Shown: positions 482 to 12,868 of the stretch, in pieces | How the letters are laid out: each line of letters begins with the position of its first letter | Position numbering within the stretch: the stretch's first letter is position 1 | From: a virus | Virus record (IMG/VR): IMGVR_UViG_3300009181_000044 | Coordinates: 1-64,000 of that record | Reading direction: 5' to 3' (one strand) | DNA: 64,000 nucleotides | Made by a program: the position numbers and the translations under genes | Notes under the pieces: model-generated | The model's database searches: none | Seen by the model: only the letters and a program-made list of their open reading frames with translations | What the model was told of the DNA's origin: nothing

Positions 482-625
482 TTAAGACTAGACACTTTGA
501 GTGGATTGCCTACAATCACGGAAATCTAGTGTGCTGGGAGGAGCTCGCGACTTACGGGGATCCAGTAACACACTAGAATTTGCGTAGATTTAGGGTCAAT
601 GCACAATCAAAGTAGACTAGTCTAA
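482..625 (+). ncRNA. long imperfect hairpin (5' leader or small RNA)
   Basis: Nested arms: AGACTAG/CTAGTCT, ACTTTGA/TCAAAGT, CTAGTGTG-CTGG/CCAG-CACACTAG. Confidence 0.5.
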
Positions 626-653
626 AGGTTTTGGGAAAACTACGTTTAAAAAA

Positions 654-1430
654 ATGCTACAATTAAGAAAACTAACTATAACTGAATTACCACTTAACTT
701 AATTGCTACAATGACGGAAACTGAATTGGAGGATTGGGCTGTAAAGAACCAACTCAATCGCATGGGATCGTGGCTCTTGCCCCAACTTGTGGCGGCTTTT
801 GGTTCGTGGCGACTCATCCTAGTTGACGGCAAACCAGATGTTAAACTGACCCTAAAGCACAACTGTGAGTCTAGTTTAGAAGCTCAGGCATACTGGCGGC
901 TAAGCCGAATTCCACGCACGTGCCTATTAACCAAGCAGGTAGCAATTCCAGAGTATGCTGTGTTAACTCCACTAATCCTAGCAGGATTTAAGCGTATGCA
1001 GGCAGTTGGCTATGCGTCATGGCAGGGTTTAGAAAATTTAAGCTATGTCATAGAACCCCGTCTCTTGGAGGCAGTTTGTGTTGATGTGCCTGACTTAGGG
1101 TCAGAGCGACTATTGGAGATTAGACAACAGGGGTTAACAACACGCAGTGGCAAAAGTGCAGGTCAACTAAAGTCAGCAGAAACTACTTGGAGCTTGAATG
1201 GAATATCGGACACTGAGTTGGGACATCTACCCAAATTAACACAATCCATATTAGCTCAAATCTGGCTGGCCCATCCGGTTCACAGAAGTGGGCTTATGAT
1301 TTTAGATCCGGGCAACTGGGATCACATGCCAGAACCACTAATTGCACCCACAATATTTAAACAACCCATTAAAGAATCTGAAGTAATAAACGCAAAAGAA
1401 ACAGCAAAAACACTACTACCGTGGATGTAA
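654..1430 (+). CDS. hypothetical phage protein (258 aa)
   Basis: Long ORF downstream of a promoter, abutting the next gene; no motif recognised. Confidence 0.75.
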   Translation: MLQLRKLTITELPLNLIATMTETELEDWAVKNQLNRMGSWLLPQLVAAFGSWRLILVDGKPDVKLTLKHNCESSLEAQAYWRLSRIPRTCLLTKQVAIPEYAVLTPLILAGFKRMQAVGYASWQGLENLSYVIEPRLLEAVCVDVPDLGSERLLEIRQQGLTTRSGKSAGQLKSAETTWSLNGISDTELGHLPKLTQSILAQIWLAHPVHRSGLMILDPGNWDHMPEPLIAPTIFKQPIKESEVINAKETAKTLLPWM

Positions 1431-1431
1431 G

Positions 1432-1749
1432 ATGAAATACAATAAAGAAATCACTGACCGTATTATAGCTGACTACAAGGCTAAGGTGCCAGTTCGAGAT
1501 ATAGCTAATGCAATTGACGTACCAGAACGCTCAATTATAGCAAAATTAAGCTCTTTAGGAGTTTACGAGAAAAAAACGTATGTTAATAAACGAGGTGAGC
1601 TGCCCGTAAAAAAATCCGAGCACATTGAACGCATAGCACAACTGCTTGAGGTCAATTCAGAGACCCTAGAATCGCTGGAAAAGGTAAATAAGGGAGTACT
1701 TAAGTTAATTGAACTTAAATTGACCAAATCTGACCCTAAACCAGAATAA
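1432..1749 (+). CDS. T5 A2-like DNA-binding protein, paralogue 1
   Basis: RSIIAKLSSLGVYEKK...LESLEKVNK aligns with the other three copies and with recalled T5 A2 (SVRSKL..AKAY..; LASLE). Confidence 0.65.
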   Translation: MKYNKEITDRIIADYKAKVPVRDIANAIDVPERSIIAKLSSLGVYEKKTYVNKRGELPVKKSEHIERIAQLLEVNSETLESLEKVNKGVLKLIELKLTKSDPKPE

Positions 1750-1767
1750 TTGCCCATAATTCGACAC

Positions 1768-1802
1768 AAGCCTACTTAATTTCGGTTAAGTAGGCTTTTT
1801 TG
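1768..1802 (+). terminator. intrinsic terminator
   Basis: AAGCCTACTTAA-TTTCGG-TTAAGTAGGCTT followed by a T run. Confidence 0.85.
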
Positions 1803-2009
1803 CGTCTGCTCTAATCAGGTCAAATCAGGCTATTTTGCGGCACCACTGCAATTGTTACGGTTTAGGGTCAGTAGAACTCAAAGGTTACACTTTAGGGTCA
1901 GAACAGGAACCTATGGGTAAAAATCAAGAATTTGCACTTGACAAGTTGAACACACACTGGTAAAATGGCGCAGGCACGTCGAAAATTTGCGATGTGGTTT
2001 ATTTTACGC

Positions 2010-2048
2010 AAAACAAAGCCCCCTCACCGCGACGTGTAGGGGGCTTTG
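2010..2048 (-). terminator. intrinsic terminator closing the RNA cluster
   Basis: Minus strand CAAAGCCCCCT...AGGGGGCTTTG followed by TTTT. Confidence 0.8.
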
Positions 2049-2066
2049 AACTCGCCAGTTTTTTAG

Positions 2067-2426
2067 TGGTTGTCTAAGTGCAGCTGCCAAGCCGCACACT
2101 GGTTTCCTCAGTGGTTCTCTAACAGGACTTCTGGAAGACGGTCTTCACGGCCTGACCCTAAACTGCACACTGCCTCACTGACGTTACTGTGAGCATACCG
2201 GTGGTTAGGGGAGTAATGCGCTACGCTTCCAACGCTTGCGCCCTTTTTAACGACTTAGGGTCGAGCCGGTTATATTGTTGCTCCCGCTCGGACTAAAGCA
2301 GGGACTAGCCTTGTAACGTGGACAATTACGACTGATTAGAGACCGCTGCAGTTTAGGGTCATTAACGCTACTGGGGGTTCCACCCAGATTACCTGACTCA
2401 TAGGTCAAGCTCTTAAGGTCTTAGAT
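2067..2426 (-). ncRNA. large structured RNA of unknown class, ending in CCA
   Basis: No ORF; 15-bp long-range helix 2347-2361/2153-2167; many hairpins with GNRA loops (GGAA, GCAA, GAAA) on the minus strand; 6-bp closing stem TCTAAG/CTTAGA then CAACCA. Confidence 0.6.
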
Positions 2427-2568
2427 GATAGCTGTATTTATAGAGTTCTTTCTCTTCTAGTTTTGTATTCACACTCATAGTGGAGTCGGGAGGAGTATAG
2501 ACTTTGCTCCGAGCCTAGGGTTACGTACTATTTACAAACTACCACAAGGGATTTATGTTTAGGTTCGG

Positions 2569-2666
2569 TTCCTGACCCTAAGCTGCGACTAGCGGTGTTG
2601 TAGTAACACGCACACTAGCTGCGATTGCTTGGGTTTCGCTAGACTTGCACTAGCTCATCAGAGGAA
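2569..2666 (-). ncRNA. hammerhead ribozyme (type I)
   Basis: TTCCT-CTGATGA-GCTAG(TGCAAGT)CTAGC-GAAA-CCCAAGC...GCTTAGGG-TC|AGGAA: full core, stems I-III paired, GUC cleavage triplet. Confidence 0.88.
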
Positions 2667-2668
2667 TA

Positions 2669-2738
2669 TGGTGGGCGGTGTGTAGCTTCTCACACCATCA
2701 AGTTGTTATCAGATTCGTAAATCTGTCGCATAACACCC
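2669..2738 (-). ncRNA. tRNA-sized CCA-ending non-tRNA RNA
   Basis: GGGTG/CGCCC-A-CCA closing stem; internal hairpins CAGATT-TACG-AATCTG and GGTGTG-N8-CACACC; no TTC T-loop. Confidence 0.6.
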
Positions 2739-2743
2739 AAAAC

Positions 2744-2818
2744 TGGTACTCGGCAGGAGAATCGAACTCCTCTTTCCGCCGTGAAAGGGCAGCGTCCTAA
2801 CCGATAGACGAGCCGAGC
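2744..2818 (-). tRNA. tRNA-Glu (TTC)
   Basis: GCTCGGC acceptor stem, anticodon arm CTGCC-CTTTCAC-GGCGG, T-loop GTTCGATTC, encoded CCA. Confidence 0.95.
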
Positions 2819-2918
2819 AGGATACTAAGGGCTGTGGCTCGGGTAATTTATTCCCCACAATTAAGACGCATAACGGATAAATCCCGTTTCCGCTGTCACC
2901 CTGAATTAATATATAATA

Positions 2919-2947
2919 ATTATAACGTAATCAAGCTCGGTAATCAA
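2919..2947 (-). promoter_or_regulatory. sigma70 promoter driving the RNA cluster
   Basis: TTGATT-N17-TATAAT on the minus strand. Confidence 0.75.
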
Positions 2948-3089
2948 GTAAAAATAAACAGTCGTTGTTATCAGAACTAACTTAGGTGAATTTAAAAAAA
3001 TTAATTAGGTTGACTAAGTGTTCATTAACAAACGGGCGGCCGGGTTTTCACGGTCATTCATTAAGCCCTTCCCGACTGTTTATAAATAA

Positions 3090-3118
3090 ATTATACAGCA
3101 AATAGGGTCGTCAATCAA
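3090..3118 (-). promoter_or_regulatory. second sigma70 promoter upstream of the RNA cluster
   Basis: TTGATT-N17-TATAAT on the minus strand. Confidence 0.7.
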
Positions 3119-3144
3119 GTGAAGATTTTCTGACCCTAAATTGC

Positions 3145-3453
3145 TCAAGGCAGGCGAGCTGCCAAGAGTTCGAGTGCTTCGTGGGTTGCCTTTTCCAGGC
3201 TTTCCAGCACTTCTTCACTAGCGCCCACTTTGTAGGCAATCAGGCTTACCAGCTGAGCCTTGGTCACGCGAGTGCCAGTAGCCTTGCTTTTGGCCTTGTA
3301 CACGCCTTCGCGGCTGAGCTTGGCCACGATGCTGCGGGTAGATTTGCCCAGTTGTAGGGCAAGGATTTCTACAGCCAAGCCTTGGCTGTAACCCTGCAAG
3401 AGTTCAGCCGTTTGTTCGGCGGTGTAGTTGGTTTTGGTAGCTTCAGTCATCAT
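3145..3453 (-). CDS. T5 A2-like protein, paralogue 2
   Basis: NYTAEQT...RSIVAKLSREGVY...LESLEKAT; AAAGGA RBS. Confidence 0.7.
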   Translation of the reverse strand: MMTEATKTNYTAEQTAELLQGYSQGLAVEILALQLGKSTRSIVAKLSREGVYKAKSKATGTRVTKAQLVSLIAYKVGASEEVLESLEKATHEALELLAARLP

Positions 3454-3499
3454 ATGTCCTTTTGGTTGGTTTCTGCGCTGTTAAAAGATTATTATACAA

Positions 3500-3634
3500 C
3501 TATTGCGGCACATCGTCAAATTCAAAAAACTTGTCGTGTACGTAGATAGTACCGAGATTTTTGGATAGCTCTGTCTCCACAAATTCTGCAAACCACTGCT
3601 CCTGGTTTAAGCTGAAAAATTCGTTGTCCGACAT
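3500..3634 (-). CDS. small acidic protein (44 aa, not in ORF track)
   Basis: AAGGA RBS; MSDNEFFSLNQEQWFAEFVETELSKNLGTIYVHDKFFEFDDVPQ; upstream TATAAT. Confidence 0.5.
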   Translation of the reverse strand: MSDNEFFSLNQEQWFAEFVETELSKNLGTIYVHDKFFEFDDVPQ

Positions 3635-3947
3635 TTGCCATTCCTTGTTATCATAAAATAAATTATACATAAATCAAAACTTTTTGGCAAATGTAAATTT
3701 TTTCGCTTGATTGCGCACTTGAATCGAAAATACACTTGACAACACTAGGTTTAGCACTGTATAATTTTGGCGCAGGTGACACGGTGATTTTTACACTTGC
3801 TTTCCCACTGGCGCAGCCGGTATACATGCTCGTTTTTACACTTGCTTTTCCACTGGCGCAGGGCATGCATGCCCTGTCGTACTAAAGTACCACAAAATCG
3901 CCGGCAAGTACTGAAAAAGTAGTACATCCGCAAAAATAGCCGCAAAC

Positions 3948-4009
3948 TGGCACAGAATCTGCTAATAGCAAGAATCGTGCCAGCCCCAGCGGCGCAAGAA
4001 GTATGCCAA
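3948..4009. promoter_or_regulatory. three sigma-54 (-24/-12) consensus sites
   Basis: TGGCACAGAATCTGCT (+, 3948), TGGCACGATTCTTGCT (-, 3967-3982), TGGCATACTTCTTGC (-, 3994-4008); all GG-N10-GC. Confidence 0.65.
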
Positions 4010-4265
4010 GTGGTAAGAAAACAACATCAGGGAAAACACCTACAAAATATTTCTTGACACGCGCCCCAAAATTGTGTTATAATTTTGGCGCCAATAACCC
4101 TACTGACTGTAGGGTTATTAAGCTAAAAAATAACCCTGCGCTGGGCAGGGTTACTAAAAATATGCTAGGGGGATTTTCACCCCCATGCCCGAATAAAAAA
4201 TCGGATATTAAAAATTATATGATAGCATATTTTTAAAAAGCCCCTGCTTTTGGCAGGGGCTGTAA

Positions 4266-4592
4266 TCAAATAGGTTTACTATTTGCCAAAGCGTCAAAAA
4301 TCGCTTTCAGTGCCGATTTATTGGCTTTTGTAAGACTTTCGATGTCATTTTCCGGCAAGCGGAGAATCGCACCGATAGCGTCTGCATGAGCGTCTTTTTT
4401 GACTACAGCTTCGCCCGTTTTGGAAACGTAAGTTTTAGCCACATAGACCTTTTCGCGTGACAATTTCGCCACAACGGAACGCACAGTTTTGCCCAAATTT
4501 TGGGCAATGGTTTCCACCGATACCCCTGAGGTATAATCGGCAATCATCGCAGAGGTTTGCTCTGGAGTGTAATTTACAACTTTCGCAGTCAT
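4266..4592 (-). CDS. T5 A2-like protein, paralogue 3
   Basis: KTVRSVVAKLSREKVYVAKTY; very similar to 9308-9631. Confidence 0.75.
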   Translation of the reverse strand: MTAKVVNYTPEQTSAMIADYTSGVSVETIAQNLGKTVRSVVAKLSREKVYVAKTYVSKTGEAVVKKDAHADAIGAILRLPENDIESLTKANKSALKAIFDALANSKPI

Positions 4593-4773
4593 TTTGCTTT
4601 CCTTTCATTTAAAAATAAATTATAACCCATAAACCAGAAAAAATCAAGTGTGTGCAAAAATACAACATAGGGGAAAACACCTATTGACAACCCCCAAAAT
4701 TATATGTTATAATTTTGGCGCAGCAAAGTAGTACTTTGGTTTCCAATTTTACTTGGAAACCAAAGTGTTACAA

Positions 4774-5843: not shown

Positions 5844-6197
5844 TTAAATCTCCATTGAGTGATATGCTTTAGCGGGTAAACCATATTTTACCATGATTTC
5901 AGACCATGTGCGCCCATGCCAGCGATTATTTTTTGGCAAGCCATGAAAAATATAATCAATTTGATGTGCAATTTCGTGTGGTAAAATAACATTAAGCATC
6001 TCAATTGAATGCTTTTGCATAAACTTCATGCCGAAATTAATACAATTGTTTTCAACCTCACAGTTAGCGGCAGTTACTGTAAACCTTTTGTTTGCAATAA
6101 TGACGGGTCGATCAATGCGAATCAATCGGGGATAGATTTCGCAAAATTCAAGCCATACCGAATCAGCTTTTTTGTTGATTGTTTTCATTGTGTCCAT
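5844..6197 (-). CDS. SprT-like zinc metalloprotease
   Basis: HEIAH...HGRTW motif; start uncertain (6197 or 6188). Confidence 0.8.
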   Translation of the reverse strand: MDTMKTINKKADSVWLEFCEIYPRLIRIDRPVIIANKRFTVTAANCEVENNCINFGMKFMQKHSIEMLNVILPHEIAHQIDYIFHGLPKNNRWHGRTWSEIMVKYGLPAKAYHSMEI

Positions 6198-6351
6198 GCC
6201 TGAATTATACATCAAAACCCCGTTGTTTTTTAATCACACACAAAAAATAAGTTATTAAATAATGCTTGACAAGCCCCAATTATATAATATATAATTGGCG
6301 CAGCCAGAAACGAAAGTATTACATTTCGTTTCTTTTTGAAAACCTGAGTTT

Positions 6352-7882: not shown

Positions 7883-8359
7883 TTAATGTCCTTGTTTGCT
7901 TGGTACATATACGCCACGAATATCAAAACGATCACAAACCGCTTTTAGATAAGTAATATTATCTTCATAAAATGTAAATTCGGCATCTTTGAAATTTAGC
8001 AAATTAAAGAATTTAGCCAAACCTGCAATTTTAAGGGTTGCACCTGATACATTGTCGCCATCTTTGCGAGATATGATATAATCTGGTTCGCCTAGAATCT
8101 CGCTAATAAATTGATTATCAGCATCCCGCAAAACACGGGCAGTAGCAATAATAACAAAACAATTCTCATTTCTGAGGTCTGTTTTGTATTGTTCTGCCAA
8201 TGGTAAAAGTGAATCTTCCAATGCACGATATTCATTTTCACGCCAATAATCAAGGTCGATACGCTCGCCATTGTCGCCAATGATAGTGCGATACCGATGC
8301 AATGAGTCAACAATTGTGCCATCCATGTCATATATTGAAACCTTTGTGATTTTAGCCAT
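7883..8359 (-). CDS. HAD-superfamily phosphatase / nucleotidase
   Basis: DMDGT motif I, ATAR motif II, FYEDN motif IV. Confidence 0.8.
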   Translation of the reverse strand: MAKITKVSIYDMDGTIVDSLHRYRTIIGDNGERIDLDYWRENEYRALEDSLLPLAEQYKTDLRNENCFVIIATARVLRDADNQFISEILGEPDYIISRKDGDNVSGATLKIAGLAKFFNLLNFKDAEFTFYEDNITYLKAVCDRFDIRGVYVPSKQGH

Positions 8360-9307: not shown

Positions 9308-9631
9308 TCAGGCTTTTTCAGCCTTGATAAAATCGGCAATTTTTGCCAATGCAGTTTTGTTAGCCTTAGTCAGCGAATCAGCATCAGCCTCAGAGAGTGC
9401 CAGTGCCTTAGCGATGAAATCAGCGAATTCATCTTTTTTAACAACGGCTTCACCCGTCTTGGTGGTGTATGTCTTGGCAACATAAACCTTCTCGCGAGAG
9501 AGTTTAGCAACAACAGATCGAACAGTTTTGCCAAGGGATTCAGCAATGGATTCGACCGATGTGCCAGCCTGATAGTCAGCGACCATTTTAGCGGTTTGTT
9601 CGGCAGTGTAGTTTACAGTTTTTGCAGTCAT
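9308..9631 (-). CDS. T5 A2-like protein, paralogue 4
   Basis: MTAKTVNYTAEQT...RSVVAKLSREKVY; GGAG RBS. Confidence 0.75.
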   Translation of the reverse strand: MTAKTVNYTAEQTAKMVADYQAGTSVESIAESLGKTVRSVVAKLSREKVYVAKTYTTKTGEAVVKKDEFADFIAKALALSEADADSLTKANKTALAKIADFIKAEKA

Positions 9632-10068: not shown

Positions 10069-10542
10069 ATGACACAAATGCTACCTGCTGAAGTCATTAA
10101 GATAGCCCCAGAAGCACTAGAAGTGGCCAATTGCTATCTACAACTTAACGACCCTAGAAAGGTCGCACACGAACTAGACCTGGATGTAGAAACTGTAACT
10201 GAACTACTAAAGCGACGTGAAGTTAAAGCTTACATAGACTCGGTATTTTTTGACTCGGGCTATAACAACCGCTTTCTTATGCGTCGAGCCATGGATGCAC
10301 TAATCAAACAAAAGTTTCAGGAATTAGAAGAAGCTGGAGCAGGCTCGCAAAAAGACATTTCAGAACTCTTAGCGCTTTCGCACAAGATGAGCATGGATCT
10401 CATGGACAAAGAAATTCAGCTGGAAAAAATCCGGGCAGGTACTGCACCGCAAAAACAAGTTAATGTGCAAATTAACGAAGGTTTAGATGGAAGCAAGTAT
10501 TCAAAGCTGGTACAGCAGTTAATCTCAGGAGAAGGTGTTTAA
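10069..10542 (+). CDS. terS: terminase small subunit (T5-like)
   Basis: EVKAYIDSVFFDSGYNNR...KFQELEEAGAGS.KDI resembles T5 TerS; upstream of TerL. Confidence 0.85.
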   Translation: MTQMLPAEVIKIAPEALEVANCYLQLNDPRKVAHELDLDVETVTELLKRREVKAYIDSVFFDSGYNNRFLMRRAMDALIKQKFQELEEAGAGSQKDISELLALSHKMSMDLMDKEIQLEKIRAGTAPQKQVNVQINEGLDGSKYSKLVQQLISGEGV

Positions 10543-11252: not shown

Positions 11253-11579
11253 ATGATTACCATAACCGCTGCGGCTCACAAACAAATTGCAGAAGTATTA
11301 GCTAAACGTGGTCATGGTATCGGTATTAAGATTGGTGTCAAAACTACTGGGTGTAGTGGGTTAGCTTATGTACTGGAATATGTAGATAGTATGGACTATA
11401 CAGAAAATACTGTGAATTATAGCCTAACAGACTTTTGTGTGCTAGTTAGTTTAAAGGACGAGCCTTACCTAAAAGGTTTAACAATGGATTGGGTTCGCGC
11501 AGGACTTAATACAGGTTTTGATTTCCAAAACCCAAATGAACGTGACCGCTGTGGTTGCGGAGAAAGTTTTCGAGTATAA
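11253..11579 (+). CDS. iscA: IscA/HesB A-type Fe-S carrier
   Basis: GVKTTGCSGLAY...NPN...CGCGESF. Confidence 0.92.
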   Translation: MITITAAAHKQIAEVLAKRGHGIGIKIGVKTTGCSGLAYVLEYVDSMDYTENTVNYSLTDFCVLVSLKDEPYLKGLTMDWVRAGLNTGFDFQNPNERDRCGCGESFRV

Positions 11580-12868
11580 TGAGCTTAATAATTTCCCGAC
11601 CAGACGTCAATTGTGACGTAATAGTTGACTTTCCCGCTACCACACGCTTTATCAAGCTGCCTATTACCAACTACCTAAAGTTATTAGATATCTACGATAC
11701 TATCAACCGACCCCAAATTGCATTAATCAACGCAGTCAACGATCCACAATACCGTTTTATCTGCGCAGCCCTAGCTCGCCGACTAGGCAAAACTTATATC
11801 GCCAACATTATTGGGCAATTAGTAACCTTAGTGCCTGGGTCTAATGTCTTAATTATATCGCCTAACTATAATCTCAGCTCAATCTCATTTGAGCTGCAGC
11901 GCCGCCTAATCAAACACTTTGACCTAGAAGTTTCACGAGACAACTTAAAAGACAAGATCATTGAACTTGAGAATGGCAGCACCATTCGCATGGGCTCACT
12001 TTCGACTGTGGACTCAACTGTGGGTCGCAGCTACGACTTAATTATCTTTGATGAAGCTGCATTGGGTGAAGGTGGTGAAGCTGCCTTTAACGTTGCACTT
12101 CGCCCAACCCTAGACCGACCAGGTGCTAAGGCCCTTTTCATCTCAACTCCACGTGGTCGCAACAACTGGTTCTCACAGTTTTACAATCGCGGATTTGATC
12201 CCAACTTTCCAGAATGGGTTTCGCTACAAGCTGACTATACAGAAAATACCCGCATGGCAGAATCAGATGTTGACGAAGCCCGCCGAAGCATGAGCAAGGC
12301 AGAGTTTGAGCAAGAGTACATGGCCAGCTTTACCACGTATGCAGGTCAAATCTATAACTATAGTGCCCAAGATGTAGAAACACCCGCAACCGACTTGATG
12401 GGCGAAGCCATTGCTGGCTGTGACCCTGGCTATCGCGACGAAACTGCGTTTGTGGCTGTGGTATACGATCATAAAACCGATTGTTTTTGGGTAGTAGACG
12501 AATACTTAAAAGCGGAAAAAACCACACGTGAGCATGCAGAGCAGTTTCAGCTGTTATGTGTGAAGTGGGGTATAGAAACCATTTTTATTGACTCAGCAGC
12601 TGCACAGTTTGCGTCAGACTTAGCTTACCTTTACAACTTGGCAACCACCAAGGCTAAAAAAGACGTGCTCCCCGGAATTGCTTATGTACAAACCTTAGTA
12701 CAACAAAATCGCCTTAAAGTGGCCCCACACTGCCAGCATGTGCTAGCTATGTTAGATCAATACCGCTGGGATGATAAAGAAGGCTTGCAACGCGAGCGTC
12801 CTAAGCACGATAAGTACTCTCACATGGCTGATGCCTTACGATATGCACTTTATACTTATACACTATGA
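11579..12868 (+). CDS. terL: terminase large subunit
   Basis: ARRLGKT Walker A, IIFDEAA Walker B, STPRG, C-terminal HMADALRY; start overlaps the iscA stop (TAATG). Confidence 0.95.
   Translation: MSLIISRPDVNCDVIVDFPATTRFIKLPITNYLKLLDIYDTINRPQIALINAVNDPQYRFICAALARRLGKTYIANIIGQLVTLVPGSNVLIISPNYNLSSISFELQRRLIKHFDLEVSRDNLKDKIIELENGSTIRMGSLSTVDSTVGRSYDLIIFDEAALGEGGEAAFNVALRPTLDRPGAKALFISTPRGRNNWFSQFYNRGFDPNFPEWVSLQADYTENTRMAESDVDEARRSMSKAEFEQEYMASFTTYAGQIYNYSAQDVETPATDLMGEAIAGCDPGYRDETAFVAVVYDHKTDCFWVVDEYLKAEKTTREHAEQFQLLCVKWGIETIFIDSAAAQFASDLAYLYNLATTKAKKDVLPGIAYVQTLVQQNRLKVAPHCQHVLAMLDQYRWDDKEGLQRERPKHDKYSHMADALRYALYTYTL

Follow-up and report, generated by a model that had tools for sequence, protein, structure and literature searches.

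A conserved cluster of three sigma-54-type sites in the early region of an uncultured T5-like phage, possibly serving to capture host holoenzyme

Three sigma-54-type sites are packed into 62 bp in a non-coding gap of a phage genome, and related phages keep them with their spacing intact. The DNA analyzed, hereafter the window, comprises the first 64 kb of a 98,857-bp IMG/VR virus record, whose completeness is estimated at 93%. From motif fit, conservation and the distribution of such sites in viral DNA, we consider it probable that the sites are genuinely recognized by sigma-54. Our tentative reading is that they are sites for the host sigma-54 holoenzyme which would serve more for capture or occupancy than for ordinary promotion; this is slightly favored over a conditional promoter. 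A preliminary description of this DNA had reported three sites with exact GG-N10-GC spacing at this place, and direct reading of the sequence confirmed both their positions and their spacing:

3948-3963, plus strand: S1, sigma-54-type site TGGCACAGAATCTGCT, 10 of 11 consensus positions
3967-3982, minus strand: S2, perfect sigma-54 -24/-12 site TGGCACGATTCTTGCT, 11 of 11 positions; tandem copy B
3993-4008, minus strand: S3, sigma-54-type site TGGCATACTTCTTGCG, 9 of 11 positions; tandem copy A, 26 bp upstream of S2

The 98,857-bp genome contains a single perfect TGGCAC-N5-TTGCW, namely S2. Together with S1 it forms a convergent mirror pair, with 3 bp between the two -12 elements, S1 being a decayed copy of the TGGCACGGAAGTTGCT found in relatives; S3 differs by three substitutions from the family 16-mer TGGCACGATTCTTGCG. 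Sites matching at least 9 of the 11 positions numbered 33 in the genome, compared to 17.9 in first-order Markov simulations, and a cluster of three within 62 bp was obtained in none of 60 such simulations (Poisson expectation 0.0013 per genome). A weight-matrix scan, which the preliminary description had proposed as a gauge of significance, was run over both strands of the genome with a matrix trained on 257 array elements from unrelated phages. It placed S2 (23.6 bits), S3 (19.2 bits) and S1 (12.7 bits) at ranks 1, 2 and 3; the scores of S2 and S3 fall inside the range of the training sites, and that of S1 below it. All three agree with the extended consensus YTGGCACGrNNNTTGCW of bacterial promoters. 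It is reportedly the one given by Barrios et al. in 1999. Familiar bacterial -24/-12 promoters of sigma-54 (RpoN) include glnAp2 and pspA.

A weaker fourth site, proposed at 3854, fared less well: with 4.5 bits and rank 14 it is indistinguishable from background. It was discarded because of this rank and because it belongs to a different repeat, a promoter-derived module with TGGCGCAG that has a twin copy at 3809 without the GC. The remaining three, with S3 and S2 in tandem at 26 bp and S2 and S1 as a mirror pair with a 3-bp gap, display the geometry of the phage sigma-54-site arrays described below, a class taken here to comprise intergenic groups of at least two consensus sites with a 24-28 bp period, or mirror pairs a few bp apart. 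The predicted start points of S2 and S3 are at about 3956 and 3982 on the minus strand, and those of the convergent S1 and S2 fall inside one another.

Among the genes of the window are those for a fused protease/major capsid protein, a major tail protein, TerS (10069-10542) and TerL (11555-12868); an ORF of 2314 aa downstream of the tail gene was taken as the tape measure on the basis of position and size only. The capsid protein shares about 34% identity with its counterparts in T5-like phages of Vibrio, Aeromonas and Escherichia, which makes this phage a distant T5-like siphovirus without a close cultured relative. BLASTN comparisons of 3400-4600 with cultured phages, for near and for distant similarity, gave no match, and TerL searches gave distant matches only, from which no host was assigned. 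Searches of the phage for Sigma54_activat (PF00158) and Sigma54_DBD gave no match either, that is, neither an activator gene (enhancer-binding ATPase) nor a sigma-54 gene was detected.

The cluster sits in a 620-bp gap (3635-4265) inside an early-type region of small minus-strand genes. This gap holds no ORF of 90 aa or more and no convincing gene, and the short ORFs that were tested had no family match. An ORF at 4003-4236 on the plus strand was rejected as a gene: it overlaps S3, a promoter and four hairpins, and its similarity in two relatives (L094 and L193) is best explained by DNA conservation. The surroundings of the cluster comprise the following features:

3145-3453, minus strand: gene for a 102-aa HTH protein (PHROG 'D5-like regulator / DNA binding protein'), 514 bp downstream of S2/S3
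3491-3519, minus strand: the HTH gene's own sigma-70 promoter
3500-3634, minus strand: small ORF of 44-45 aa, the first co-oriented gene downstream of S2/S3, at 333 bp
3662-3690, minus strand: sigma-70-type promoter TTGCCA-N17-TATAAT, serving the small ORF
3736-3775, plus strand: consensus sigma-70 promoter directed at the cluster
3789-3861, plus strand: two copies of a promoter-derived repeat ending CCACTGGCGCAG, including the proposed fourth site (3854-3869)
3859-3876, no strand assigned: 18-bp perfect palindrome CAGGGCATGCATGCCCTG, in the variable stretch downstream of the sites
3879-3890, no strand assigned: 12-bp palindrome GTACTAAAGTAC, in the same variable stretch
4009-4053, no strand assigned: A/T-rich spacer block (TGTTGTTTTT) separating copy A from the divergent sigma-70 promoter; most relatives keep it at a fixed distance
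4054-4093, plus strand: consensus sigma-70 promoter TTGACA-N18-TATAAT with TGGCGCC start box, back-to-back with S3 and kept in relatives
4098-4260, minus strand: four hairpins, two of them predicted intrinsic terminators and two read by eye (one with a T-run)
4266-4592, minus strand: gene upstream of the cluster that encodes a 108-aa HTH paralogue and was the anchor for fetching relatives

The hairpins at 4098-4260 end the upstream minus-strand gene ahead of the cluster. The plus-strand promoters at 3736 and 4054 belong to a set of nine near-identical sigma-70 promoters (TTGACA-N17/18-TATAAT, at 1938, 3736, 4054, 4684, 5538, 6266, 7601, 8463 and 9189), eight of which precede TGGCGCAG/TGGCGCC, 8463 being the exception; in several an AAAGTA(G/T)TAC box follows. 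Most lie in gaps between minus-strand early genes and are thus convergent or antisense to them. The stretches 3789-3816 and 3834-3861 are promoter-less copies of TTTTTACACTTGCTTTYCCACTGGCGCAG, which resemble the promoter module minus its -10 hexamer, and this element is also kept in relatives (gctgcgccagtgg on the opposite strand).

The HTH genes on either side of the gap belong to a group of four paralogues of about 105 aa (1432-1749 on the plus strand; 3145-3453, 4266-4592 and 9308-9631 on the minus strand), with PHROG matches to 'D5-like transcriptional regulator' or DNA binding protein and a weak, sub-threshold likeness to GcrA and sigma-70 region 4. Elsewhere among the small early genes, the minus-strand pair 7883-8359 and 5844-6215 includes a SprT-like metalloprotease domain protein and, by a weak match, a haloacid-dehalogenase-type hydrolase, possibly the counterpart of the T5 pre-early 5'-deoxyribonucleotidase. 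In the window, 16 copies of the 8-mer TTAGGGTC (core of TTTAGGGTCAG) were counted, compared to 1.2 expected. Eleven copies, in both orientations, lie in 590-3139, eight of them in 1729-3143, a 1.4-kb stretch that holds no ORF of 90 aa or more and contains the sole tRNA gene found (tRNA-Glu, 2744-2818, minus strand). These copies may form a site array for another DNA-binding protein, or mark an origin-like region.

No intrinsic terminator was predicted between the 3736 promoter and the cluster. The S2/S1 dyad could be read as a stem-loop in the transcript of this promoter, or in an antisense RNA, acting as a processing, stability or pausing element. The hairpins predicted for the two strands are more stable than shuffled sequences (z = -2.8 and -3.5), as is the 277-nt transcript (z = -3.0). 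However, only the -24/-12 consensus bases pair, the spacers facing each other unpaired; Rfam gave no match at 3948-4009; and both S3 and the tandem arrays of other phages are left unexplained. We hold an RNA or DNA hairpin element to be very improbable.

The conservation of the cluster was analyzed in 78 IMG/VR loci, fetched with the upstream HTH gene (4266-4592) as anchor. Downstream of this gene, about 26 of the 78 carry the same 16-mer, often in tandem 26 bp apart, with copy A ending in TTGCGCC and copy B in TTGCT. The 16-mer of S2 is found unchanged in about 15 relatives, and four (L007, L063, L074 and L094) have a mirror copy at the place of S1. In an alignment of 21 distinct versions (A1), where mean column (flank) identity is 59%, the invariant columns are essentially the 16-mer, and copy A is the most conserved element. 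Loss of the spacing in homologous regions, which the preliminary description had named as a possible refutation, was thus not what was observed: the relatives keep the sites with their spacing intact. The spacer GATTC of the 16-mer is also invariant in the family. This goes beyond the need of sigma-54, and could reflect a second reader or a recent spread.

Next to this conserved core, the DNA immediately downstream of the sites has been replaced wholesale by other cassettes, the palindrome stretch 3859-3890 being swapped for other repeats. Variable DNA beside the module was recorded in eight loci (L002, L003, L008, L028, L030, L068, L148 and L150). In L008, four DnaA boxes (TTATCCACA) lie right beside its sigma-54 site; a Fur-box-like gcgaatcattctcatt is present in several loci (L002, L003, L028 and L030); L148 and L150 have four 37-bp iterons near their sigma-54 sites; and the other cassettes consist of assorted direct repeats and palindromes. 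From its sequence, this region looks like a mosaic of docking-site cassettes, that is, of candidate sites for host factors.

About half of the relatives do not have the module at the same place, where L003 has a different palindrome, and the module is therefore dispensable. By this comparison of loci, it is a discrete element, conserved where present. A physical genome end at the cluster was considered, since in several relatives the contig terminates 70-100 bp beyond the anchor gene. These ends coincide exactly with the repeated promoter module: they are due to assembly and are no evidence of a genome end. The nine-copy sigma-70 promoter module is the cause of these breaks.

Conservation of the 16-mer could also be explained by an operator or iteron for some other DNA-binding protein, either one of the four paralogous HTH proteins of the phage or some host factor, the likeness to sigma-54 sites being coincidental. 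The invariance of the whole 16-mer, spacer included, fits such a protein, as do the presence of an HTH gene downstream of the sites, the resemblance of the S2/S1 mirror pair to a dyad site for a dimer, and the other repeat cassettes (DnaA boxes, Fur-box-like sequences, palindromes) in the adjoining DNA of relatives. A comparison with phages at large bears on this point. Searching IMG/VR for two sites 9-12 nt apart returned at least 120 stretches, and most of those listed are arrays in intergenic DNA, with 2-9 sites repeated every 25-28 bp. We compiled 275 unique array elements from other phages, and they match the sigma-54 consensus at positions that the search pattern did not impose: the base before TGG is T or C in 89%, the first base after TGGCAY is G in 78% and the second a purine in 80%, the base before TGC is T in 97%, and the base after GC is A or T in 89%.

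With a stricter pattern having the sigma-54 spacer, tandem pairs were found in at least 120 IMG/VR stretches; the same pattern with one base more or one base less in the internal spacer gave 0 and 0. In 596 Gbp of prokaryote genomes, the strict tandem pattern was found in 21 stretches only, so that the enrichment of viral over cellular DNA is roughly 50-fold or greater, the size of the viral collection being a rough estimate. This spacing control, together with the viral enrichment, makes the wider phenomenon hard to dismiss. Mirror (convergent) and back-to-back (divergent) pairs with exact spacing were present in at least 120 IMG/VR stretches each. Since such pairs are as common in viral contigs, orientation seems secondary to binding.

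The neighbors of these arrays are unrelated genes: among the listed loci, an operon encoding an AT-hook protein, an endolysin and TerL in 42, a different TerS family in 7, and, in the kin of the T5-like phage, the D5-like HTH gene. Matches to the D5-like HTH protein were found in 8 of the roughly 120 array-bearing loci listed, and no phage protein common to the listed loci was detected. For the AT-hook protein, no cultured relatives were found. With unrelated neighbors and no common phage protein, the simplest explanation is a conserved host reader; the motif is that of sigma-54. These results argue against an operator on several counts: the motif is bipartite, with variable spacers and a strict N4 gap, and is found in numerous phage groups without these HTH genes; it fits the sigma-54 consensus where the search left the bases free; and no common phage-encoded candidate was found, the motif not co-occurring with a regulator gene everywhere. 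We consider an operator improbable. The arrays beside terminase operons in other phages also raised the case of a cos or pac site, bound by the terminase small subunit. It was rejected because the neighboring TerS families are unrelated and because the present cluster is 6 kb away from TerS.

Larger sigma-54-type arrays, either tandem series of as many as nine copies or mirror pairs alternating in runs, were seen on eight viral contigs (L127, L178, L223, L305, L309, L315, L320 and L349). For a test of binding or titration, such arrays would be better subjects than a cluster of three sites. The present cluster has the merit of being a small, clean and conserved example with a clear neighboring gene pair.

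The cluster had been described as having no gene to drive. This holds for S1, which faces none, but not for S2 and S3: they are co-oriented with the small ORF and the HTH gene in all 26 module-bearing relatives with enough sequence. Of 27 module-bearing relatives, 25 have the HTH gene at a distance of 460-577 bp downstream from the sites, and 18 have a homologue of the small ORF at 280-400 bp; one or both genes are kept in 26, the contig of the other (L078) ending too early. In two more distant relatives, L103 and L148, tandem sites precede the HTH gene by about 130 bp and lie immediately before its sigma-70 promoter.

S3 and S2 might be tandem activator-dependent promoters for the small ORF and the D5-like HTH regulator. 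Their input would be the state of the host (for instance envelope, nitrogen or RNA-damage stress), relayed by a host enhancer-binding protein, in parallel with the sigma-70 and sigma-54 promoter pair of glnA, and S1 would be a decaying mirror copy or the source of a short antisense RNA. The constant co-orientation, the fairly constant distance and the arrangement in L103 and L148 speak for such promoters. So does a precedent, the sigma-54-like promoter of Pseudomonas phage YuA, whose start was mapped (Ceyssens et al. 2008, as cited in PMC10914365). In addition, two of the four hairpins are palindromes situated about 105-190 bp upstream of the predicted S2/S3 starts and 31 bp apart, like activator sites; they are, however, terminator-like, and their type differs among relatives that keep the sites.

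Other observations weigh against promotion, and most of them at the same time favor occupancy. Neither an activator gene nor a conserved activator site upstream was recognized in the phage, although a host activator might act. Each of the two downstream genes is served by a sigma-70 promoter, and the leader from S2/S3 would be long (330-510 bp) and variable. Tandem sites at 26 bp with an overlapping convergent S1 make an unproductive geometry. Finally, orientations are mixed across phages, and packed tandem pairs are almost absent from bacterial genomes, the home of real sigma-54 promoters. We regard conditional promotion as a close rival, only slightly less probable than occupancy.

No bacterial sigma factor other than sigma-54 is known to form a holoenzyme that remains stably bound to DNA without transcribing, and sigma-54 is scarce, with about a hundred copies per cell in E. 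coli. Under the occupancy reading, the three sites would be a discrete, recombining module of a non-coding early control region, recognized by the host sigma-54 (RpoN) holoenzyme. The holoenzyme would sit there as a stable closed complex, which would not fire without a host enhancer-binding ATPase, and the tight packing would let only one or two sites be occupied at once. The scarce holoenzyme would thereby be captured on phage DNA, and this capture might titrate it off the host sigma-54 regulons, or else keep a polymerase poised between strong sigma-70 units. From these sites, the small ORF/HTH operon would be transcribed leftward only if a host activator happened to act. Several observations go against this reading: the invariance of GATTC, the missing module in about half of the relatives, the conserved, promoter-like orientation of the tandem pair relative to the small ORF and HTH gene, the mapped sigma-54-like promoter of YuA, and the finding of no roadblock effect at single intragenic sites in E. 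coli. Moreover, with three sites per genome little holoenzyme would be soaked up, unless genome copies are numerous.

A broader proposal is that phage site clusters act as a DNA-encoded anti-sigma 'sponge', capturing holoenzyme on replicating DNA and not making RNA. We find this doubtful as a general function. If it were true, sigma-54-dependent programs of stress response, repair, motility or defense would be switched off; the inert complex might alternatively be used as a structural mark on phage DNA. If phages routinely carry packed sites without an activator, either their early regulators are plugged into host stress signaling through host activators, or DNA itself is used to sequester a host transcription factor. 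Either outcome would be a new layer of phage-host control.

How do these sites compare with known systems? They are like bacterial sigma-54 promoters in their exact GG-N10-GC spacing and extended consensus, with S2 a perfect match, and, as in glnA, a sigma-70 promoter for the same genes follows downstream of one tandem partner. In contrast to bacterial promoters, the cluster comes without an activator gene or a conserved upstream activator site, and phage sites are packed at 26 bp and overlap convergently, an arrangement nearly absent from the 596 Gbp of prokaryote genomes. A second comparison is with inert sites in E. coli, where, regardless of conditions, sigma-54 holoenzyme occupies its sites in an inactive form, and most of 135 mapped sites make no RNA (PMC4591121, Bonocora et al. 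2015). Those sites also bind holoenzyme without making RNA, and a decoy function was discussed as a possibility; they are, however, single, mostly intragenic and chromosomal, whereas the phage module is intergenic, clustered and conserved as a unit. No roadblock effect was found for single intragenic sites (PMC4591121), which weakens the part of the preliminary description in which bound holoenzyme served as a roadblock on phage DNA.

T5 resembles this phage in logic only, both having, next to small early genes, a large repeat-rich stretch of non-coding DNA that may dock host proteins. In T5, the untranslated injection-stop region was proposed as a dock for DnaA (Davison, bioRxiv 10.1101/866236), and the four DnaA boxes next to the sigma-54 site of L008 recall this proposal. 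The first 12 kb of T5 hold no good sigma-54 site. Conversely, the DnaA-box pattern is not enriched in the window and is absent from 1750-4265, and no injection stop signal of the T5 type, with paired DnaA boxes in untranslated DNA where a terminal repeat has its inner edge, was recognized here.

A phage parallel is YuA, a virulent siphovirus which, according to the account in PMC10914365, likewise carries a host sigma-54-type promoter sequence, its P015 promoter having been confirmed by ONT-cappable-seq. As described there, YuA has a single productive promoter, in contrast to the cluster of three predicted sites in conflicting orientations found here. Beyond single sigma-54 promoters such as that of YuA, our literature searches found no account of sigma-54 site arrays in phages. 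The type of site is thus a known one, and what appears to be new is its occurrence in phage-specific packed clusters that come without an activator.
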